Notes under the pieces: generated by a model
What the model saw: the letters and a program-made list of their open reading frames with translations, nothing else
Database searches by the model: none
What the model was told of the DNA's origin: nothing
IMG/VR virus record: IMGVR_UViG_3300021375_000010
Origin: an uncultured virus (IMG/VR IMGVR_UViG_3300021375_000010)
Lineage: Duplodnaviria > Heunggongvirae > Uroviricota > Caudoviricetes
Reading direction: 5' to 3' (one strand)
DNA: 64,000 nt
In this document: piece by piece, positions 4,342 through 58,162 of the stretch
How positions within the stretch are numbered: the first letter of the stretch is position 1
Layout of the letters: each line of letters opens with the position of its first letter
Translations under genes and position numbers: made by a program

Positions 4342-4768
4342 GAGACACGAAGGAGAAGTCCTTGAAGTGTACGCTGATTCACTAGGATATTTAACACTAG
4401 GTGTTGGACATCTAATTAAAGAAGGTGATGCAGAACATGGACAACCTGCTGGAACTCCAGTGAGTCAAGAAACTGTTGATGCATACTATGAAGCAGACTT
4501 TGACAAACACGTAGAAGAAACTATCCATGTGTTTGAGTCAAAAGGTGGAGAAGATTTCTATGCACTACCCGAAGACATTCAACACGTTCTAGTTAACATG
4601 ACATTCAACTTAGGTGGAACAAGATTCGGTAAGTTCAATAACATGTGGAAAGGTGTTGTTGCTTGTGACTGGGAAAAGGTTGCAGTCGAAATGGAAGACT
4701 CTAGATGGTTCGGACAAGTTGGAAGAAGGTCAGTAGAACTCCAACAAATGGTTCGAAACTGTGACTAA
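4310..4768 (+). CDS. Phage lysozyme (T4 e/gp5-like, GH24)
   Basis: HEG..LEVYADSLGYLTLGVGHL catalytic motif, NMTFNLG, MEDSRWFGQVGRR. Confidence 0.9.
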   Translation: MNKEVLKEQIKRHEGEVLEVYADSLGYLTLGVGHLIKEGDAEHGQPAGTPVSQETVDAYYEADFDKHVEETIHVFESKGGEDFYALPEDIQHVLVNMTFNLGGTRFGKFNNMWKGVVACDWEKVAVEMEDSRWFGQVGRRSVELQQMVRNCD

Positions 4769-5042
4769 AGAAATCCTTGCAGTAAAATTAATCGGTGGTG
4801 AAGTTGTCATTGGATATGTCACTAAGAACCGATGGAAAAAGGAAATAGTTATACAAGAGGCACAAGAGTGTCTCATTACGTATGCTGAAGGTAGAGCAGA
4901 GGTAGAACTCGCACCTTGGAATCCATATGCTATGGACTATACGTTTAAGGTACCATTTCATGCTGTAGTTACTACATTCAAAGTGAGACCAAATTTAGAA
5001 ATTAACTACAAGAAAAGTACAGGTAATATTAAGGAAAAATAA
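4761..5042 (+). CDS. Hypothetical protein (Sm-like beta fold)
   Basis: VKLIGGEVVIG...LAPW pattern common in T4-like phages; GTG start. Confidence 0.55.
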   Translation: MTKEILAVKLIGGEVVIGYVTKNRWKKEIVIQEAQECLITYAEGRAEVELAPWNPYAMDYTFKVPFHAVVTTFKVRPNLEINYKKSTGNIKEK

Positions 5043-5263
5043 TGACAGATTTATTAAGAGCATTAGAAAAGAAACTAGAGGGTGATGTTGCAGTTCACAC
5101 TGCAAATGCTATGGTATACCAATCAAACCCAACAGGGATTGGTGAACACCCCGATATCGTTCAAGCATTAGAAATGGAAGTTGAAAAACTTGCTGATGCA
5201 CAGGACAAACTCAAATCGGTAAAAGAACTTCTACACCCATCTAAAAAGACCCTTGTAGAATAG
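5042..5263 (+). CDS. Hypothetical protein
   Basis: Coupled ORF with NPTGIGEHPDI motif. Confidence 0.65.
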   Translation: MTDLLRALEKKLEGDVAVHTANAMVYQSNPTGIGEHPDIVQALEMEVEKLADAQDKLKSVKELLHPSKKTLVE

Positions 5264-5281
5264 ACATCTTTCTGTTATAAT
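5253..5281 (+). promoter_or_regulatory. Sigma70-type promoter for gp43 (leaderless)
   Basis: TTGTAG-17-TATAAT, ATG 6 nt after the -10 box, no SD. Confidence 0.55.
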
Positions 5282-5287
5282 AACCAC

Positions 5288-7795
5288 ATGGATTATTATA
5301 CAAACGTATGTCGTACACGTGACAAGATTCTCGTTCGAGGATATCAAGGTAACAAACAAGTCAAGCACAAGATTGACTACAGACCCAAACACTACATTCC
5401 ATCTAAGAAAGGCGAGACACCGTTTCGTTCACTAGATGACAGACCACTTGAAGTTGTAGAACTCAACTCAATGGGTGGTGCAAGAAAGTTCCGTGAGAAA
5501 TATGATGGGACTGCTGGATTTGAAATCCATGGATATGACAGATATATCTACACATATATCGCAGAGAAATTCCATGGAGACATAGAGTTCAATTCAAAGA
5601 ACATCAAAGCAGCGGTACTTGATATTGAGTGTGAGTGTGAAGACGGATTCCCCGAACCAAGATATGCCCAAGAAAAGATAAACGCAATTACAATCAAACC
5701 GATTGGTAAACCAGCACATGTATTTGGAATAGGTGACTGGAATCACGGTAAAGATTATGTGTATTATCCTTGTAGAGATGAAGCACATCTCATGACTGAG
5801 TTCATGAAGTATTGGAGAACAGAAAACTTTGATATTATCACAGGTTGGAATGTAAACTCATTCGATATTACATATATTTGTAACAGAATTGATAGACTCT
5901 TCGGCGAAGGAGAACACAAGAAGTTATCTCCATGGGGTATGAGTGATGTGAGAGAGTTCACCACCATGGGTTATCAAAAACAAATGATTTTTACACTCTA
6001 TGGTGTTAATGTTCTTGACTATCTCGAACTATATCGTAAACACACATTCGTCAATCAAGCATCATACAAACTAGACCATATTGCTGAGGTAGAACTAGGT
6101 AAGAAGAAACTAGACTATTCAGAACATGGGTCATTACATACACTATACAAACAGGACTATCCAAAGTTCTTGGAGTATAATGTGATGGACGTTCTTCTCG
6201 TTGAAGAACTAGATGACAAACTTGGATTCATCGAACTTACAGAGACGATGGCATACAATGCTAAGTGCAATTATGCAGATGTATTTGGTATGGTTAAGTA
6301 TTGGGAAACAATCATATACAACTTCTTAAAAGAACAGAAGATACAAACACCACCACAACAATTGAGAAGAAATGGTGACAAAATCAAGCCGATCGCTGGT
6401 GCATATGTAAAAGAACCACAGGTTGGTGGTCACAATTGGGTCATGTCTTTTGATTTAAATTCACTATATCCTCACTTGATTATGCAGTTTAACATTTCAC
6501 CCGAAAAGATGGTGAATGGTATGAGACAGGATGTTAACGTAGATAAAATGTTAAACAAAGAGTGTAACCTAAATGAAGTGTATAAATTAGGACACACTGT
6601 TACGCCAAACGGAGTAATGTTCAAGAGAGATAAACAAGGATTCCTTCCCGAACTTATGGAAAAGTTCTATGATGAACGTAAGGCATGGAAGAAGAAGATG
6701 ATTGGATATCAGAAAGAACTTGAAACTGTTTCTGATAATGTACAACGTAAAGAATTAGAAACAAAAATCAAACATGCATACAACAATCAACAGGTCAGAA
6801 AGATTGCACTCAACTCTGCTTATGGTGCTCTTGCTAATCAATACTTTGCATTCTTTTCTATCGACCTCGCAGAGGCGATTACTATGTCGGGTCAGTTGGC
6901 CATCAAATGGGCAGAGAAAACCATCAACGATTATCTAAACGAAGTTTTAAAGACTAAAAAAGATTATGTTATCGCAATGGATACAGACTCGGTCTATATC
7001 ACAATGGATGCATTGGTACAACAAGTACTACCCGATGCATCTAAAGAAGAGGTTGTTGATTTTTTATGTAAAGCTGAAGTTCAACTAGAGAATATCCTAG
7101 AAAAGGGATTCATTGACTTTGCAAAATACACGAATGCATTCCAACAGAAGATGGAGATGGGACGTGAGGCGATTGCAGACAGAGGTATATGGACTGCTAA
7201 GAAACGCTACATACTTAACGTTCATGACATGGAAGGTGTGCGGTTTGCTAAACCTAAACTTAAACTCATGGGTATTGAGACTGCAAAGTCCAGTACACCA
7301 CAATGGGTAAGAACCCGTCTTGAAGAGGCGATTAAGATTGTCATGCAAGGTGATGAGGAACAATTATGGGATTACGTAGAAACTGCACGTAAGGAATTCA
7401 GAGAGTTACCACCCGAGAAAGTATCATTCCCTAGAGGTTGCAACAACCTTGCTCAATATAGTAACATGAACACTGTTTACACTAAGGGAACACCAATACA
7501 TGTCCGTGGTGCTTTACTATTCAATCACCACCTAAAGAATAAGAATTTAGATAGACGCTACGAGACAATCAAGGAAGGTGACAAGATTCTTTTCTCATAT
7601 CTTACACTACCAAATGTGTTTAATGAGAATGTGATATCTTATGTTGGTACACTTCCAAAAGAGTTTGACTTACACAGGTTCATAGACTATGACATGCAGT
7701 TCAACAAATCATTCTTAGAACCTCTAAGAAATATTGCAGAACGTATCGGATGGCATACAGAACCTGTTGCATCTTTGGATAGTTTCTTTTCATGA
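5288..7795 (+). CDS. 43: Family B DNA polymerase (gp43)
   Basis: DIE exonuclease, SFDLNSLYPH, KIALNSAYG, DTDS, KKRY motifs; uninterrupted. Confidence 0.98.
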   Translation: MDYYTNVCRTRDKILVRGYQGNKQVKHKIDYRPKHYIPSKKGETPFRSLDDRPLEVVELNSMGGARKFREKYDGTAGFEIHGYDRYIYTYIAEKFHGDIEFNSKNIKAAVLDIECECEDGFPEPRYAQEKINAITIKPIGKPAHVFGIGDWNHGKDYVYYPCRDEAHLMTEFMKYWRTENFDIITGWNVNSFDITYICNRIDRLFGEGEHKKLSPWGMSDVREFTTMGYQKQMIFTLYGVNVLDYLELYRKHTFVNQASYKLDHIAEVELGKKKLDYSEHGSLHTLYKQDYPKFLEYNVMDVLLVEELDDKLGFIELTETMAYNAKCNYADVFGMVKYWETIIYNFLKEQKIQTPPQQLRRNGDKIKPIAGAYVKEPQVGGHNWVMSFDLNSLYPHLIMQFNISPEKMVNGMRQDVNVDKMLNKECNLNEVYKLGHTVTPNGVMFKRDKQGFLPELMEKFYDERKAWKKKMIGYQKELETVSDNVQRKELETKIKHAYNNQQVRKIALNSAYGALANQYFAFFSIDLAEAITMSGQLAIKWAEKTINDYLNEVLKTKKDYVIAMDTDSVYITMDALVQQVLPDASKEEVVDFLCKAEVQLENILEKGFIDFAKYTNAFQQKMEMGREAIADRGIWTAKKRYILNVHDMEGVRFAKPKLKLMGIETAKSSTPQWVRTRLEEAIKIVMQGDEEQLWDYVETARKEFRELPPEKVSFPRGCNNLAQYSNMNTVYTKGTPIHVRGALLFNHHLKNKNLDRRYETIKEGDKILFSYLTLPNVFNENVISYVGTLPKEFDLHRFIDYDMQFNKSFLEPLRNIAERIGWHTEPVASLDSFFS

Positions 7796-38993: not shown

Positions 38994-39655
38994 ACTACAC
39001 TAATACATCACACGATGTCGTGCAAGGGTTCCTCTCTATAGAGGAATCCGAACACATTGCTAGGGTACTTAAACGTTCAGAAAGAGACGTACTGAGACTA
39101 CCCAATCCCGAATGGAACGATTCCAATTACCCACCTTTAACAAAACAACACGTAGTCTATAATTGGTTAACCCATCCCGACATACGTCCGTTGAATATAC
39201 CACAACGCCTGCTCGGGCTAGACCTATTCAAAGATATAAACAATCTCACACTTCAATGTTGGGGTAACATATTAAGACAAGGTGAACACATCACTCCACA
39301 CCAACACCACGAAGAAGACAAAGAACCCCTATCCGACTTTCACAAAGATACCACACCACAGGAACGAGCCAAAACACAACTTGTCCCAATGGTCGCAACC
39401 AATATATTCCTAGACGGAGTAGAACCCTCATACACTCATTACGAAGATACCAAACAAACGCTCAATATTAAGGGAGACTTACACATAGTAGGTGCATACC
39501 ACAGACATGAAGTCAAGACCAACGTATACCGTACACCACGCTACTCGCTGGCCATGGATATCTATTTCAGAGATTACACCAAAGGATGGGATACGATAGA
39601 AAAAGGATTCAGTAATACTAAGAGGTTTGTTGACGTTTCCCGAAGTAACGTCTAA
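38981..39655 (+). CDS. 2OG-Fe(II) oxygenase-like protein
   Basis: WGNILRQGE.I.PHQH, H.V, PRYSLAMD. Confidence 0.7.
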   Translation: MVPVNYTNTSHDVVQGFLSIEESEHIARVLKRSERDVLRLPNPEWNDSNYPPLTKQHVVYNWLTHPDIRPLNIPQRLLGLDLFKDINNLTLQCWGNILRQGEHITPHQHHEEDKEPLSDFHKDTTPQERAKTQLVPMVATNIFLDGVEPSYTHYEDTKQTLNIKGDLHIVGAYHRHEVKTNVYRTPRYSLAMDIYFRDYTKGWDTIEKGFSNTKRFVDVSRSNV

Positions 39656-39848
39656 TCGTAAAGACACGTAGATACGCTACTATGGTCATGAACGCAGTAA
39701 TCGTTGTGCCGATAGTAAACGCAGAAGTCATCCCTATAACATCAATACAGATAAACAATCCGATTAGATTCAGAGGATAGTTAATCAATAGACCAGTAAA
39801 GACTGTAGTAAAGGTTTCTTTGTGATATCTTCGAGTTTCTTTGTTCAT
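39618..39848 (-). CDS. Small two-TM membrane protein (only credible minus-strand gene)
   Basis: Hydrophobic; ETFTTV..GLLIN...R.F.IRRYF pattern; minus-strand TATACT just upstream. Confidence 0.7.
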   Translation of the reverse strand: MNKETRRYHKETFTTVFTGLLINYPLNLIGLFICIDVIGMTSAFTIGTTITAFMTIVAYLRVFTIRRYFGKRQQTS

Positions 39849-40122
39849 ACCTTAGTATAACACGCTGAGATGCCTTTGTATAGTGGGTTTTGAATATAAT
39901 TGTTTAGAGCGGAATCAGAGTATGAATATAATGTGTGTAGTAGTGTGCAGAAGTGTGTAATTATATTCGTATTTGAGTACGATGGGAGAATGTGGAATAA
40001 AGTGGGTTTTGGTGGTGCTGTTCGGGGATACAAAACCTATTTTTAGCGGAGAGTCAAGCATGAGAGCATGTTGACAGCGACCCACAAACGTGATAAGGCA
40101 AGGCGCTCCCACGCAAAAAGAC

Positions 40123-40152
40123 TTGACAATGCCCCTCACTTTCCTCTATACT
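40123..40152 (+). promoter_or_regulatory. Early sigma70-type promoter
   Basis: TTGACA-ATGCCCCTCACTTTCCTC-TATACT. Confidence 0.8.
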
Positions 40153-40179
40153 GTATTCATCAACTACGGAGACACACAC

Positions 40180-40389
40180 ATGATTCAGTACATTGACATT
40201 AACACCTACCAAGGTTCTATCCCCCACCTACATGAGATGGTTGAATTCGAGGCGAACAGTGACCCTATCGAAGACGGTATTGTCCTCTATGGGTTTGATG
40301 AGGTTGGTATGGGTGGATTCAAAGACCCTCAACACGCCTTTGTTCCCTTCTTTATGTGTAACTTGGAAAGTGTAAACCCTTTCTTCTGA
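40180..40389 (+). CDS. Early hypothetical protein
   Basis: GGAG RBS after promoter. Confidence 0.65.
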   Translation: MIQYIDINTYQGSIPHLHEMVEFEANSDPIEDGIVLYGFDEVGMGGFKDPQHAFVPFFMCNLESVNPFF

Positions 40390-40485
40390 GATGCCTTGCC
40401 TATAAGGGTTTCAGAGGCGCCATATCTTATATGATAGGAATAAGTCATATAACGTAGAAAGTATATCAGATAAGATATATAAAAC

Positions 40486-40515
40486 TTGACAATGGCCATC
40501 ACTTTTTCGTATAAT
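40486..40515 (+). promoter_or_regulatory. Early sigma70-type promoter
   Basis: TTGACA-ATGGCCATCACTTTTTCG-TATAAT. Confidence 0.8.
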
Positions 40516-40521
40516 GGCTAC

Positions 40522-40620
40522 ATGATAAAGAAATTAAGAAATAACGGTCTGCTTGATGCGGACTTCCTTCAACCCCTACTATGTCTTATGGTATTAATCA
40601 TCCTAGGAGAAGTGTTATGA
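40522..40620 (+). CDS. Leaderless 32-aa membrane peptide
   Basis: MIKKLRNNGLLDADFLQPLLCLMVLIILGEVL; ATG 6 nt after -10. Confidence 0.45.
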   Translation: MIKKLRNNGLLDADFLQPLLCLMVLIILGEVL

Positions 40621-40847
40621 TAAAGAAAGATGGTCACGGACTCATCGGTACTCACATCGCAACAGGTATGGGAGTGGAGATTAATCTAACCAAACAGGAG
40701 ATGCTTCTTGCATCGGCACCTAAGAATATCAATGAGTCGTGGGAGAAAGCCATGGAGATGGTCAAAGCACGTCTCGGTATTGAGGTCATCGGTCAGATAG
40801 AAATTGAACAAATTGTCATAAATGGGGTTGCCAAGACCTTCCATTAA
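40617..40847 (+). CDS. Early hypothetical protein
   Basis: AGGAG RBS, ATGA coupling. Confidence 0.65.
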   Translation: MIKKDGHGLIGTHIATGMGVEINLTKQEMLLASAPKNINESWEKAMEMVKARLGIEVIGQIEIEQIVINGVAKTFH

Positions 40848-40862
40848 TGGTATAATTACTGT

Positions 40863-41230
40863 GTAACAGGGAAAAAAGAAGTTAATCTGAGAGTTATTCT
40901 TTTATTATGTACCTATGTGAAGTCTCAGAGGGTCATGTCCGAACATGCATAGCGGGATGAGAAGCCCGCTGCTCTACAACGCAATAGCTGTAGGGCTCTC
41001 AGAGCGCCTTAAATGGCGATAGGAGAAGTACATTCTGTGTGTCTCTGAGCGTCTGAGCTGCTCTCTAAGCGATTGCGTGTGTAGGGGACTATGAAACGCC
41101 TTAGTGGCGCTCACAGGCTAACGCAAAACAGTGCTGTGGGACTCCTAGAGAGATTCGAAGTCGGGTCATGCGCCCCACTAGATTTACTTTAAGGGTTTTA
41201 AAACACTTCAGAGAAAAAAATTCTCTGGCC
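40863..41230 (+). ncRNA. Candidate large structured ncRNA
   Basis: No ORF of 60 aa or more, ~53% GC by hand count over 40921-41180, about nine helices, promoter TTGCCA-17-TATAAT at 40828-40856. Confidence 0.6.
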
Positions 41231-41254
41231 AAAAATAAAGATTGAGAGGATTTT

Positions 41255-41749
41255 ATGAAAATTACTGGAACACACTTAGGACTTGCTATCCTTATTACCT
41301 ATTTTGTATTGCAATCTACACTAGTAGAAGCAAAAGACCAACTCCGACCCGATGATAATAGATTCGGAGACGTGAGAATACAGGAGAATGTCTATCAAGG
41401 GACTGTTGTCTCTGTATATTCTGTTGTGATTAAGAAAGATGAAGAGGGATATTCTCTCTATGGTGGTCTCATAGGCGGTTATCTAGCACGTGAGAGTATG
41501 AAAGGTAAGGGTGAGTCAGAGGAAGTCCTTGGTACACTCGCAGGCGGACTCGTAGGGTCTAAGATTGGACGTGAGGTGAATAAATCTCGCAATACCGTGG
41601 ATGGTGTACAGTTAATTGTTGACGTGCCAGGCATCGGTGTTAAGTCTATTATACAGCAGAAGACATCTGCATTTAATTTTAGTAGTGGTGATACAGTTTA
41701 TCTTGTCGGCACTCGAAATAATCTACGTGTATTGAAAAAAAACCCCTAG
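41255..41749 (+). CDS. Glycine-zipper outer-membrane protein (SlyB-like)
   Basis: Signal peptide, GGLIGG...GTLAGGLVGSKIG, F..GD.V. Confidence 0.75.
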   Translation: MKITGTHLGLAILITYFVLQSTLVEAKDQLRPDDNRFGDVRIQENVYQGTVVSVYSVVIKKDEEGYSLYGGLIGGYLARESMKGKGESEEVLGTLAGGLVGSKIGREVNKSRNTVDGVQLIVDVPGIGVKSIIQQKTSAFNFSSGDTVYLVGTRNNLRVLKKNP

Positions 41750-41865
41750 ACGTAGTAGGGTATACCATGTATAATGGTATTATATTAACCGAAACTGGTT
41801 TTATTACACTGGTGACTCATAAGGCACCTTCACAATAAATCAGATTCACATTTAAGGAGACGAAT

Positions 41866-43350
41866 ATGTCTTATATTAGTACAAGTGATGGTCTCGATAC
41901 TTTAAAATCGACCTTGGAATCCCTAAACCAACAAAAAGAGGGGAGTGCCTTTTCTGCAAAAGGCGAAATAGAGGTTTCGTTTGGTTTTACCTACGTCAGT
42001 TCTCTGTTTGTTTTAGGTAACCGTTCCTATCAGAGGGAAAGGGTTGCAACAATACCCTTCAAGCAGGGTATACTCCAAACTGTTTTAGAGGATTCCTTTA
42101 AGAGGATTCCTCAAATACACATTCTTGTCAAGTTTGATGAGGATGGTAAGGTCATCGCACTTGAATTGATGGATGGCCAACAGCGTTTCTCCAGTCTACT
42201 AGACTTTTCCAATAACGAATTCCCACTTGCACCGAATTTAACAATCAATGGTGTGAAGTTGGGTGGTCTATACTTTAATCAGTTAGACGTTGACATGCAA
42301 CAGTTCATATTAAACCACTCAGTTGACGCTGTGTGGTATATGAATCTCAAGAAAGAGCAAATCTCAGAGATGTTTGTTGATGTATTGAACAATACAAACG
42401 ATATGAAACCACAAGAGAAGCGTAATGCATACCTAGGTGAGTTCCCCGAGTACGTAAGGGATACCTCTAGGACTACGCCTAAGGGGTTGCCACAGACGTT
42501 CAAGTTTAATCCCTTGTTCACACGTGCAATCGACTCTAAAGGTAAGGAGACGTTATCTCATTTCTCCAAGAACTTTAAACTCAATGCAAGAATGGAAGTA
42601 GACCAGTGGGTCTCGCAACTTGCATACCTATCTTATTCGTCACATGACTGGACGGATGGCATCTCGCAACAAGCACACTCTAAGTGGGTCAAAGAAGTGA
42701 CTACGGGTACGGGTGCTTATGCGGAGAAGTTTACGGATAAGAAGTTCATGGACAAGTTATTGTCTGTTACCAAGGAACTGGTACAGAGTGTACCCAGTGC
42801 AAAGAAAAATCGTTTGACTGCAATGTTTACTCACATGATGGCGTTGTATTACATGGACATTACTGGGAGATTAAATTCAAAGGCAAGTGTCACCAAGTCC
42901 GTCTTTGCAAATAAGTTTATTAGTGTCATGGAAGAATGGAGTGACAAAGACAAAGCACTCTTCAGAGACGAAACGACCTACAACGGCAATCCTATGCCAC
43001 CGGCACTGGAACTCTTTGGTGGTTACAACAAGAATGCAATCATGACGATTAAATCTATTCTTGATAAGTCCGACCCTGTTGAGTATGGGGTGACCTTTAC
43101 CGATGATGCTTCTTTTCCAAAGGAGTGGATAATCAAGAAACTAGAGGAACAGGGTGGTGTTGATTATTACACGGGTCTGCCTCTTGACATAGATAATGCA
43201 GAGGGTGACCACTATGTTGCAAAGTCGCAAGGTGGTAAGACTGAATACTCTAACCTTGTAGTGTGTTCCCGAAGTGTTAACAGACAAAAATCAAACATGA
43301 GTGCAAAAGCATTCCTCGAATATTGCGAACAATTTAAACTGGAGAAGTAA
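41866..43350 (+). CDS. DUF262 + HNH protein (GmrSD-like)
   Basis: YQRE, MDGQQR, F..LN; C-terminal GDH....GG.T...NL..C...N..K. Confidence 0.8.
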   Translation: MSYISTSDGLDTLKSTLESLNQQKEGSAFSAKGEIEVSFGFTYVSSLFVLGNRSYQRERVATIPFKQGILQTVLEDSFKRIPQIHILVKFDEDGKVIALELMDGQQRFSSLLDFSNNEFPLAPNLTINGVKLGGLYFNQLDVDMQQFILNHSVDAVWYMNLKKEQISEMFVDVLNNTNDMKPQEKRNAYLGEFPEYVRDTSRTTPKGLPQTFKFNPLFTRAIDSKGKETLSHFSKNFKLNARMEVDQWVSQLAYLSYSSHDWTDGISQQAHSKWVKEVTTGTGAYAEKFTDKKFMDKLLSVTKELVQSVPSAKKNRLTAMFTHMMALYYMDITGRLNSKASVTKSVFANKFISVMEEWSDKDKALFRDETTYNGNPMPPALELFGGYNKNAIMTIKSILDKSDPVEYGVTFTDDASFPKEWIIKKLEEQGGVDYYTGLPLDIDNAEGDHYVAKSQGGKTEYSNLVVCSRSVNRQKSNMSAKAFLEYCEQFKLEK

Positions 43351-45652: not shown

Positions 45653-46936
45653 ATGAAAAAAATACTTGGAATTAATATTTCACACGATGCCGCTGTTGGT
45701 ACCGTGGAAGGGCCTAAGGTAACTGGTTCGTTTGATGAGGCAAGATACCGCAGAGATAAGTACTGGTGTCCCGATTTCGACCCCGACAATGATGAGACGT
45801 GTCTGTACGATAGTATAGATGTTCGTGCTGGAGATGTCCATGACTGGGATGAAATTATATTCGCCTCTTTTGATAGACGACAGTGTACTGTTACAATCAC
45901 CCCCGATAAAAAACACCCTTCCGGCAAACACTCTATTCAATTAGATAGATTGAAGACAAGAGAATTTTTGCAAGACTTACAAAATTCCCCATTGGGTACA
46001 TCACGTCTAGAAGAGTTGCAAGAGAAGTGGGGTAAAAAAGCAATTGACTTTAGACATGAAAACGAAAATGCAGATGATGATGTCATAGACCAAATTCGTG
46101 GACATCAACTTGATAATCGTGCTTGTTACTTTGTAAGAGAACATCATCATCTATATCATGCATATAATGGATATGCTCTTTCACCTTTCTTTGACAAAGG
46201 TAAAGGTGCTATCACTATAGTTTGGGATGGCGGTGGTGGTCAACCATTGTATTCTGAATATCCAGGCTATCAAGAAATCGAATCAATTTATTATAGTGAC
46301 CCATCAAGAATGGGTGAACTTAAATGGCAGAAATTATCTAACATTAGAATGATGGATGATTTGCAAACACACTATTTCCCAAACGAGATGTCACAGTCTA
46401 CTTGGACTATAGAAGATAAGACAATCAATAAGAAGGATGATAATTTAAATTCATCTGCAGTAGAGTATGTTCTCACATCTAAACCATCTAGTGGTATGAA
46501 CTTTAGTAATATCAGTGCCGCTCTTGGAACAGATGAAGAAGGACGTGCTGCTGGTAAAGTTATGGGTATGGCATCGTACTCACCAACAGATGCTACGTTT
46601 AACGTACACAACAAATATTCAGTTGCACAACTAGTTGAACAGACTTCGTTTACGGAGTCATGTAAACTAATTGACAAAGCAATAGAGATGTTCCCAAAGT
46701 GTAAGAACATAGTGTTAAGTGGTGGGTATTCTTTAAACTGTACAAACAATTACAAGTACTTAGAAAAGTATCCCGACTATCAAATCTTTGTCGACCCTAT
46801 CCCACATGATGGTGGTACAGCAACAGGTGCTGCTCTGTGGTTAGAAGAACACTTGAGACACGAGAAGTTAGGATTAGTAACAAATGACGGATTGGGCGAT
46901 GCTACTGCCGAATTAGAAACAGTAATAGAGGATTAA
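45653..46936 (+). CDS. Carbamoyltransferase N-terminal (Kae1-like) subunit, CmcH/NodU family
   Basis: ILGINISHDAA, HHLYHA, DGGG, GKVMGMASY, LSGGYSLNC..N, DGGTATGAA. Confidence 0.88.
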   Translation: MKKILGINISHDAAVGTVEGPKVTGSFDEARYRRDKYWCPDFDPDNDETCLYDSIDVRAGDVHDWDEIIFASFDRRQCTVTITPDKKHPSGKHSIQLDRLKTREFLQDLQNSPLGTSRLEELQEKWGKKAIDFRHENENADDDVIDQIRGHQLDNRACYFVREHHHLYHAYNGYALSPFFDKGKGAITIVWDGGGGQPLYSEYPGYQEIESIYYSDPSRMGELKWQKLSNIRMMDDLQTHYFPNEMSQSTWTIEDKTINKKDDNLNSSAVEYVLTSKPSSGMNFSNISAALGTDEEGRAAGKVMGMASYSPTDATFNVHNKYSVAQLVEQTSFTESCKLIDKAIEMFPKCKNIVLSGGYSLNCTNNYKYLEKYPDYQIFVDPIPHDGGTATGAALWLEEHLRHEKLGLVTNDGLGDATAELETVIED

Positions 46937-46938
46937 TT

Positions 46939-47562
46939 ATGAAGACAGCAATTATTAGAGATTTAGATGAGGTCATCGACCTTATAGTCGGCAAGGCACA
47001 AATTGTCGCCATCTTCCAAGGTGAATCAGAATGGGGCCCACGTGCTCTAGGCAACAGGTCTATTCTATTTGACCCTAGACATCCCGAAGCAAAACAAATC
47101 GTCAACAACGTCAAGAGGCGTGAGTACTATCGACCTTTCGCTGGAAGCATCATGTTAGAACATGCTGAAGAGTATTTTGAGATGTTGCAATTACAGGAAT
47201 CCCCATGGATGTCATTCGCTATCAAAGCAAAAGACAAAGCATACAAAGACATTCCAACACTAGTACATGCAGATGGTACATGTAGAATTCAAACTGTTAC
47301 ACGTGAACAGAACAAGAACTACTATGACCTTATTGAGAAGATGTATGAAGCGACTGGTGTACCAATTATCTTTAACACTTCATTTAACTTAGGTGGTGAA
47401 CCATTAGTTGAAACTATTGAGGATGCAATCAATACTTGTAACAAGTCAGAGATTAATTTCTTATACGTTCCCGAAGACCAAGACATTCATATTCCTTATG
47501 AATCATTACATCATAAAAACATGAGTGAAATTATTAAGGCGAATAAGAGCGAGATAGCCTAA
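46939..47562 (+). CDS. Carbamoyltransferase C-terminal (YrdC-like) subunit
   Basis: EWGPRALGNRS, VKRRE.YRPFA, HADGTCRIQT, NTSFN..GEP. Confidence 0.92.
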   Translation: MKTAIIRDLDEVIDLIVGKAQIVAIFQGESEWGPRALGNRSILFDPRHPEAKQIVNNVKRREYYRPFAGSIMLEHAEEYFEMLQLQESPWMSFAIKAKDKAYKDIPTLVHADGTCRIQTVTREQNKNYYDLIEKMYEATGVPIIFNTSFNLGGEPLVETIEDAINTCNKSEINFLYVPEDQDIHIPYESLHHKNMSEIIKANKSEIA

Positions 47563-55902: not shown

Positions 55903-56208
55903 ATGGGCATGACAAGCCATTACGCTGGTTCACTTCGATACAGTATGAACGGCAAAAAACGAAAGACAAAATCTATGCGAACTCGCACAAAGAGGATGTC
56001 AGATTTTAATTGGGATACCCCACTCGTGGAACCCAAACCAGTTCGAGAGACTAAGGAATATCCTTCCGCTCCACTTGGTCTTCCGAAAACAAACGTAGAC
56101 GATTCATGGAAGGTAGAAGAGTCTAAAAACTTCACAATCGCACCCGCTTATAATAAAGGTGCTTATCAAGTCATCCCACGTGATGACGTTAAACATATAG
56201 GAAAATAA
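55903..56208 (+). CDS. Conserved T4-like hypothetical protein
   Basis: APAYNKGAYQVI; AGGAG RBS. Confidence 0.75.
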   Translation: MGMTSHYAGSLRYSMNGKKRKTKSMRTRTKRMSDFNWDTPLVEPKPVRETKEYPSAPLGLPKTNVDDSWKVEESKNFTIAPAYNKGAYQVIPRDDVKHIGK

Positions 56209-57968: not shown

Positions 57969-58162
57969 CATTTACTTTTGAACAAGCAAAACTTATTGCA
58001 TCCAGTACTGGTGGAAAGCTCAGTGCAGATGATGTGATGAATCTTGCAACTTATGGAACAACCAATGCTATGGACATGGCACCCGAAGAGGTGGGCGAAG
58101 GTTGTCCTTGTGGGGTGAAAAATTGCCCCGATGAATACGACCATGTCACACATGGAGTATAG
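57965..58162 (+). CDS. Small hypothetical protein
   Basis: ATGA coupling; CPCG..NC...Y.H...G. Confidence 0.6.
   Translation: MTFTFEQAKLIASSTGGKLSADDVMNLATYGTTNAMDMAPEEVGEGCPCGVKNCPDEYDHVTHGV

Follow-up and report, generated by a model that had tools for sequence, protein, structure and literature searches.

A conserved, uncatalogued intergenic motif shared by uncultured marine T4-like phages: a candidate cis-acting RNA signal of early transcripts

Uncultured T4-like phages are among the most abundant marine viruses and, to our knowledge, their early regions are almost entirely unexplained. In phages, leader RNAs can act in cis through recognition by a protein or by RNA polymerase, as do the translational operators of T4 genes 32 and 43 and the nut and put antitermination RNAs of lambdoid phages. 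In the sections of two reports that deal with them, promoter-early stem-loop (PeSL) cassettes are described as residents of the variable early regions of T4-type phages, present in many copies per genome, with a promoter beside a terminator stem-loop (PMC2839356, PMC4122927). The T4 replication origins oriF and oriG each comprise a promoter plus an unwinding element and, in the part of the same account that covers the origins, no sequence motif is common to them, and the repeats of oriE have no demonstrated role (PMC3016281). Here we analyze a non-coding element at positions 40863-41230 of a 64,000-nt stretch of the IMG/VR virus record IMGVR_UViG_3300021375_000010 (the whole stretch is hereafter referred to as the window), and show that its 3' part, window positions 41095-41195, carries an uncatalogued motif that recurs across a lineage of uncultured marine T4-like phages. 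PeSL cassettes are the nearest described things to this motif.

The initial annotation of the window had described the element as one ~350-nt multi-helix RNA family. This unity did not survive comparison: beyond the window's clade, relatives exist for the last ~100 nt only, and the inner helices are broken by natural variation. A DNA search of 36 other marine phage records yielded one significant partial match (query positions 267-314, E 3.9e-6). A two-word search pattern derived from that match, which demanded the words UGGGACUCCU and GGGUCAUGC (16 nt apart in the motif), found further IMG/VR contigs and 68 metagenome loci. Among the latter, 33 are true relatives: in all of them the spacing is exactly 16 nt and CAGTG, a word absent from the pattern, is present. 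The remaining 35 are chance matches, 34 of them with a different spacing and one with the right spacing but without CAGTG. Three loci too short for the 190-nt comparison, as well as identical duplicates, were left out of the alignment, and 23 distinct variants were kept. A covariance model of the motif (R1) detects the window copy at 41121-41180 with 68.7 bits (E 1.8e-18); when 8 of the 35 chance loci were included among the 52 sources given to the model, five appeared, with 12.6-18.4 bits. The shared part is also found in IMG/VR contigs of other uncultured marine T4-like phages, and both the window and the nearest 120-kb record carry it once. A search of the 5' part of the element and the rest of the window for another copy, complete or degenerate, was negative (next-best match to the model, 8.9 bits). 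The exact pattern of the motif had no matches in bacterial and archaeal genomes (185,579 species' genomes), and cultured phages gave no DNA match to the window element or to the locus of another clade.

Searches for known RNA classes were negative, in line with the initial annotation, in which none had been recognized. Across the whole window, the 4,227 families of Rfam 15, which include tmRNA, RNase P, 6S, introns, ribozymes, riboswitches and marine RNAs of the IMES and GOLLD types, matched only three tRNAs at their gathering thresholds, all located elsewhere; with the E-value relaxed to 10, the region 40700-41400 gave two chance matches, one of 16.1 bits (threshold, 43) and one of 11.5 bits (threshold, 191), and the Rfam scan of five loci from other clades gave nothing in the motif. 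ARAGORN placed the tRNAs at 2617, 23133 and 37393 and found no tRNA or tmRNA in 40848-41254. The first of these, a tRNA-Gly at 2617-2691, carries the unusual anticodon ACC. No match was found in the literature on non-coding RNAs of this kind in T4-like phages and cyanophages or on small RNAs of marine metatranscriptomes, a result that does not prove unpublished status.

The motif has a fixed order of parts: a variable hairpin position (H1), the purine word AGAG, the first conserved block, a semi-conserved AGAA, a linker, the second conserved block and a GAAGA word. The core of ~60 nt is nearly invariant across the 23 distinct variants and its spacings are fixed; the linker is A-rich, with a variable part of 7-9 nt and a constant length. 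The stem of H1 varies in sequence (GAGCG/CGCUC, GCGUC/GACGC, GGCUC/GGGUC, AGCGU/ACGCU) and comprises 4-6 bp in the other clades, and GAAGA lies exactly 28 nt after GGGUC in all clades except the window's. The window's clade further departs from the rest in its weak H1, a 12-nt insertion, AAGGG in place of GAAGA and the lack of an upstream partner for the first block; because it has neither a stable H1 nor GAAGA, this clade is an aberrant member of the motif family. In one clade (L079, L111, L133), a mini-ORF (open reading frame) of 10 codons (MKRIRIKYG followed by N or K) begins 0-3 nt after GAAGAG.

The element is composite, consisting of a clade-specific 5' part of ~230 nt and the widely shared 3' part of ~100 nt. 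The same whole element is present in five IMG/VR contigs and two metagenome contigs. Between the window and the relative L048, the element (40857-41230) shows 7 differences in 374 nt (1.9%), five of which cluster at 41040-41052, compared with 241 differences in ~2,490 nt (9.7%) over the rest of 40479-43344, a divergence ~5-fold above that of the element. This evidence of conservation is strong and clearly non-random, whereas the evidence from folding energy is weak: the whole element has a z-score of -1.82 on the + strand (5 of 100 shuffles as good) and -2.63 on the - strand, and the 5' part has a z-score of -2.32 (3 of 200 shuffles as good).

All the complementary words listed in the initial annotation are present at or near the stated positions, namely TCTGAGA/TCTCAGA (40886/40923), CATGT/ACATG (40934/40943), AGCGGG/CCCGCT (40951/40965), the long-range arms 40972-40985 with 41072-41086, CTCAGAG/CTCTGAG (40998/41043), CTCACAG/CTGTGGG (41110/41134) and CAGAGAA/TTCTCTG (41209/41221), as is the word GGGTCATG, which occurs twice (40930, 41163). 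In the 5' part these correspond to local hairpins at 40886-40929, 40934-40947, 40951-40970 and 41005-41018, together with the long-range arms. The inner helices are unsupported because natural variants of the clade break them: with the variants at 41040-41052, five of the six paired variable sites of the predicted fold become mismatches within the window's clade, and the predicted folding energy changes from -74.7 to -59.0 kcal/mol when the L003 sequence is used. The outer arms never vary and are therefore uninformative. A TG>AC change at 41040-41041 (L003, L119) converts two mismatches into Watson-Crick pairs in a possible 12-bp helix, 40925-40936/41036-41047, and breaks the window's predicted helix. 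Three of the nine CTCWGAG sites in the window lie together inside the element, within 126 nt. An internal duplication was considered and rejected, only 6-8-nt words being repeated, none significantly. The GC content of ~53% initially given for the element is that of its core (52.9% over 40923-41185) and not of the entire span (46.7% over 40863-41230; 37.8% in the whole window). Likewise, the ORF-free gap of 407 nt (40848-41254), between an 88-aa ORF and a 164-aa glycine-zipper ORF, is the largest on the coding strand, as had been proposed, at a threshold of 30 or 40 aa, and ranks third at 50 aa or more.

The motif is always located on the coding strand, in an intergenic spacer. In most clades, the TAG of a ~55-aa ORF without a known family immediately precedes it; the preceding ORF is another one in L076 and L116, and the stop is located within H1 in L085. 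A further ORF begins 60-130 nt after the motif, and the identity of this gene varies. Upstream, the motif adjoins ORF-B, ORF-A or nothing, and downstream, ORF-C, the glycine-zipper ORF or another gene; the more distant homologs of ORF-C (L147-L150) are without the motif. The motif is an exchange point between unrelated flanks, with flanking genes that differ by clade, and the occurrence of H1, linker and tail types in all combinations implies recombination inside the motif. Nor is its position syntenic between clades, given that an ORF-E homolog (43% identity) and a partial ORF-A-like stretch were observed in the window at 55909-56205 and 58067-58156, 15-17 kb from the motif. In most clades the motif is flanked by two conserved small ORFs, exemplified by L073:464-670 (~55 aa, with ..KFKLETWYDPEGEPTVEYFTSLKECS.LAASRSKEGLTVVIERV..) and L073:800-982 (~60 aa, with ..LRESGAMNMFGAP..), which have homologs in L056, L067 and L079-L142; neither ORF matches Pfam or PHROG.

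No reading frame is conserved in the motif: the stops vary across 26 sequences and the frame relative to the upstream ORF differs, in agreement with the non-coding nature proposed in the initial annotation. A hidden coding sequence or a decayed gene, for instance the 33-aa ORF at 41091-41192 inside the gap or a remnant of ORF-B, is accordingly a most improbable explanation. The 33-aa ORF has a nearby G-rich word and, in one frame, the changes at three variable core sites would be synonymous or Leu/Phe; however, this ORF is confined to the window's clade, the stops differ in every frame across the clades, there is no nucleotide or protein similarity to ORF-B, and the element is more conserved than the adjacent real genes, the opposite of decay. 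Descent of the 5' part from ORF-B was rejected as well, the best nhmmer match (E 8.1) lying elsewhere in the window and tblastn returning nothing in the element.

Because the motif is always on the coding strand in early transcripts, has varying neighbors and has no promoter or terminator of its own outside the window's clade, the reading that we tentatively favor is that of a cis-acting, sequence-specifically recognized RNA signal in early transcripts. In the window, the sigma-70-type promoter would start an RNA early, at ~40863, which would run for ~390 nt as non-coding RNA and then into the glycine-zipper gene. The functional heart of this RNA would be its 3' ~100 nt, the copy of the shared motif, which would act in cis at the level of the + strand RNA. 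A protein, RNA polymerase or the ribosome may be the conserved partner that reads the motif in a sequence-specific manner; between the two cistrons, the transcript could be processed or altered in stability, transcription could continue past a terminator, or expression could be coupled to translation of the upstream ORF.

The promoter attributed to the element in the initial annotation was confirmed (Table 1); across six variants of the clade, its -10 and TG elements are invariant, and its -35 element has C>A at 40832 in two of the six. It belongs to a series of near-consensus sigma-70-type promoters (10-12 of 12 positions), at 40123-40152, 40486-40515, 40828-40856 and 41747-41775, each preceding a small ORF, which is the layout of a T4-type variable early region. 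Beside the motif of other clades (L080, L081), no promoter or terminator was found. The hairpin downstream of the motif in the window (41209-41227) is not followed by a U-run on the + strand and is therefore not an intrinsic terminator of that strand, so that read-through into the glycine-zipper ORF is expected.

Transcription, also proposed initially, is borne out by the presence of the element in RNA libraries: the whole or part of the stretch was found in 20 of the 22 sequencing runs listed, with at least half of its words in 8, and 16 of the runs holding it are recorded as RNA, spanning 11 studies. Four runs (X1, X2, X4, X6), all in the form of contig sets, were examined. In X4, which is poly(A)-selected, the sole contigs across 39800-42300 span 40875-41228; contigs of X6 cover 40812-41139, with nothing at 40052-40807 or 41228-41731; and those of X1 and X2 begin at about 40480-40500, traverse the element and enter the next ORF, bridging 41228-41298. 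This coverage is compatible with a transcript initiated near 40863 whose abundance or stability exceeds that of its neighbors, the gaps in X4 and X6 being only a weak hint of a discrete RNA; capture by oligo-dT could be explained by the A-runs at 41216-41241. Two further contigs depart from the window in structure. In a 7.4-kb contig of X6, 40 nt resembling 39986-40025 are fused to the motif core (junction 40025/41127), with only 22 bases on one side; this contig is not interpreted here. A contig of X2 is without 57 nt at 40422-40478 (junction 40421/40479).

The same coverage bears on the possibility that the motif is the active domain of a trans-acting small RNA, a stable RNA that would pair with or titrate a host or phage target, and that would be made from its own promoter in this phage and cut from the operon transcript in other clades. 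Such an RNA would be compatible with the independence of the motif from both neighboring genes, the extreme conservation of its unpaired bases, the contigs of X4 and X6, which cover the element and not the flanks, and the promoter of the window copy; the C/U-rich word CUCCU, which we take to resemble an anti-Shine-Dalgarno sequence, might serve as its seed. We nevertheless regard a trans-acting RNA as rather unlikely, considering that no + strand terminator sets a 3' end, that the contigs of X1 and X2 continue into the next ORF, that the window shows no enrichment for the complement of the core word (at up to 2 mismatches, 10 matches were found where 11.35 are expected, the sole exact match being the motif itself) and that the motif is present in no host genome.

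The folding of the core was examined on the 23 variants. RNAalifold predicts a hairpin composed of GUGY:GCRC and GACUC:GGGUC (window pairs 41131-41134/41170-41173 and 41140-41144/41163-41167), in which 98.3% of 230 cells pair, compared with 13-60% when slid; its only two variable paired sites, U-A/U-G and U-G/C-G, are tolerated on the + strand alone. One rival hairpin, GGGG:CCCC (in the window, GGG 41163-65 with CCC 41173-75), is 89.1% paired and is impossible in L085; another, CUCAGAG:YUNUGGG, is 89.4% paired. The thermodynamic and consensus folds disagree, and none of the three candidate foldings is endorsed here. Support for H1 is modest: of 17 distinct segments, 6 outperform 95% of their shuffles in folding, and cognate arms pair at -4.29 kcal/mol versus -3.19 kcal/mol for non-cognate ones (permutation p 0.022). 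In addition, for 11 of 16 distinct sequences, pairing between the last ~35 nt of the upstream ORF and the first core block surpasses that of shuffles. The initial annotation had suggested collecting homologs as a test of covariation; relatives of the 3' ~100 nt were indeed obtained, but they display no compensatory change in the core.

Another reading is that of a self-acting RNA device, with the ~60-nt core as either a novel ribozyme that cleaves itself or a switch that senses translation. In the latter version, ribosomes finishing the upstream ORF would open a long helix and allow the core to refold, so that the two cistrons would be separated or coupled. Many invariant bases lie outside helices, the loop lengths are fixed, the pairings GACUCC/GGGGUC and GGGG/CCCC are mutually exclusive, the clades with ORF-B have the upstream stop codon inside the predicted long helix, and the motif occupies an intergenic position in a polycistronic early RNA, all of which would suit a device of this kind. 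Even so, we consider it very unlikely: there is no match to a known ribozyme or riboswitch family, the core lacks covariation, and the window's clade and the L076/L116 type keep the core without the upstream partner. Quite unlikely, too, is the scenario whereby a self-acting device that processes early cistrons or couples them is carried as a shuffled cassette which, in this phage, has been fused to a promoter-driven 230-nt leader and has become a stand-alone RNA abundantly detected in the ocean.

Several observations weigh against the cis-acting RNA signal that we favor. Of the invariant core bases, 19 were required by the search pattern, and a scan that freed 8 of these 19 returned only four contigs, all already known. 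The hairpin predicted by RNAalifold has a mean ensemble probability of 0.02-0.05 in single sequences, compared with 0.37 for GGGG:CCCC, and none of the three candidate core foldings shows a change on both sides of a pair among the 23 variants. In the clades with ORF-B, a fixed-register long helix that encloses the stop codon is 70.4% paired, versus 32-50% when slid, with 6 of 22 pairs changed on both sides, but 4 and 16 of 500 shuffle controls reach the observed values, and relatedness alone can give such values. In the window, pairing between the upstream sequence and the core is absent (z +0.91), H1 is weak (z -0.27) and the 3' part of the element does not fold better than expected (z -0.39, with 70 of 200 shuffles as good). 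The contigs from RNA libraries show neither strand, nor level, nor true ends, and may include DNA; those of X1, X2 and X6 begin upstream of the promoter. Finally, the strictness of the spacings and the length of the invariant sequence are likewise compatible with a DNA site.

A site acting at the DNA level, whose blocks would bind a phage protein on the duplex at a fixed spacing, could be an origin with a primer transcript (an origin primer RNA was among the initial proposals), an iteron-like site or a favored crossover point in the shuffling of modules. The spacings (16 nt between the words; 12 nt to GAAGA) are strictly kept even though the linker is nearly saturated with changes, the window element contains four GGGWC words, the combinations of H1, linker and tail types bespeak recombination in the motif, and the succession of a promoter, a non-coding GC-rich stretch and an A/T-rich stretch recalls oriF and oriG of T4 as outlined in PMC3016281. 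On balance, however, a DNA site appears unlikely. The region has no switch of GC skew or gene orientation, the motif has no promoter of its own in other clades, and the element is single-copy; the core pairs that are compatible through G-U only and the H1 stems of variable sequence point to + strand RNA; and the T4 origins, in that same account, offer no precedent for a shared motif or for a role of repeats such as those of oriE (PMC3016281).

The features of the locus are collected in Table 1.

Table 1. Features of the non-coding element and of the adjacent genes, in window coordinates
Feature	Position	Strand	Remarks
Upstream 88-aa ORF	40581-40847	+	No known family; last codons overlap the promoter
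Sigma-70-type early promoter	40828-40856	+	TTGCCA-17-TATAAT, TG-extended; 11/12 consensus matches; predicted start ~40863
Clade-specific 5' part of the non-coding transcript	40863-41094	+	28 near-identical loci, in the window's clade only (nhmmer)
Variable hairpin position (H1)	41095-41128	+	In the window, CGCC-UUAGU-GGCG (41097-41109) plus a 12-nt insertion; weak H1 stem
Nearly invariant core	41129-41176	+	CAGUG-Y-U-N-UGGGACUCCUA, 14-nt part-variable linker, GGGUCAUGC-R-CCC(C)
A/U-rich spacer	41177-41208	+	AAGGG in the window at the GAAGA position of other clades
Hairpin CAGAGAA-AAAAA-UUCUCUG	41209-41227	+	Terminator-like on the - strand only
Ribosome-binding site GAGAGGA followed by the 164-aa glycine-zipper ORF (41255-41749)	41243-41749	+	ORF matches Pfam PF05433 weakly
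DUF262/GmrSD_N + HNH ORF	41866-43350		640 nt downstream of the element; another gene in between

The window comes from the genome of an uncultured marine T4-like myovirus whose DNA polymerase shares 46-48% identity with the counterparts from cyanomyoviruses; all long ORFs of the window are on the + strand. The neighborhood encodes 2OG-Fe(II) oxygenases, MazG, a methyltransferase and pieces of a carbamoyltransferase, and protein-family searches gave no function for the small ORFs that flank the element. The N- and C-terminal Pfam domains of the carbamoyltransferase are found in adjacent ORFs (45653-46936 and 46939-47562) with a stop between them, that is, a split or interrupted gene. The sole sizeable minus-strand ORF of this otherwise all-plus region (39618-39848, 76 aa) is followed by an ORF-poor, G/T-rich stretch (39618-40090 region), and the GC skew reaches +0.40 at 39800-40099.

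In the initial annotation, the element was proposed to be an RNA antitoxin or guide-like partner of the nearby DUF262-HNH nuclease or, alternatively, a protein sponge acting through twin CGCC-loop-GGCG hairpins. Both hairpins do exist and resemble each other (41005, 41097), but the first is limited to the window's clade, and its loop varies in L119, whereas the second is replaced in other clades by a stop and a variable hairpin. Distant homologs of the nuclease are present in three of the four other motif-bearing records checked; the link fails nonetheless because these homologs lie ~12 kb from the motif, two of them with in-frame stops (in the matches of G038, 4698-5951, and G039, 5620-6873, one TGA and one TAA each). 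In the window, another gene separates the element from the nuclease and the adjoining downstream gene is the glycine-zipper ORF, not the nuclease; as regards a type III RNA antitoxin, whose direct repeats stand in tandem just ahead of the toxin gene, Tandem Repeats Finder reported 0 rows for 40500-41600 at a minimum score of 30. Both the nuclease partner and the sponge are extremely doubtful.

The element is uncatalogued and better conserved than the neighboring genes; it is present in the RNA libraries of 11 studies, and it shifts from one gene context to another. If the motif is a regulatory RNA signal, as favored here, it would provide a handle on the organization of early gene expression in these phages, and metatranscriptomes could readily be probed for this phage lineage with model R1. 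Should the motif prove to be a DNA site instead, genomes in which no landmark of recombination or replication is known would gain one.

Among the systems introduced at the outset, the leader RNAs (the T4 operators and the nut and put RNAs) resemble the motif in being compact, structured elements of early transcripts that are conserved in sequence, are followed by an A/U-rich unstructured leader and, on the reading favored here, act as + strand RNA. They differ in being tied to a gene or close to a promoter, whereas the motif precedes unrelated genes at 270-500 nt from the nearest promoter, and they have no sequence or Rfam similarity to it. The candidate structured RNAs described from marine metagenomes and phages, as far as the relevant sections of PMC2864571 go, rest on covariation, which the core analyzed here lacks; likewise, they are defined by conservation, are restricted to uncultured marine sources and have no known function (PMC2864571). 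With the T4 origins, in the description given in PMC3016281, the window shares a promoter-driven non-coding transcript followed by an A/T-rich stretch (window 41177-41254), and both have short words repeated at a fixed spacing; with its sigma-70-type promoter and no switch, the window differs from the T4 origins, which are located close to switches of strand bias and depend on middle promoters of the MotA type (PMC3016281). As to the PeSL cassettes, the motif is distinguished from them by its single copy, the lack of a U-tract terminator, the absence of a promoter outside the window's clade and an invariant ~60-nt core that is unlike a promoter; moreover, the promoter in the window overlaps the end of the upstream ORF without a preceding stem-loop. 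The likenesses, drawn from the relevant portions of the two PeSL reports, are nevertheless extensive: both the cassettes and the motif are intergenic in variable early regions of T4-like genomes, extend from the stop of the upstream gene toward the next start, contain a stem-loop formed by a G-run and a C-run, are conserved over ~100 bp amid unrelated small ORFs and serve as crossover points (PMC2839356, PMC4122927).

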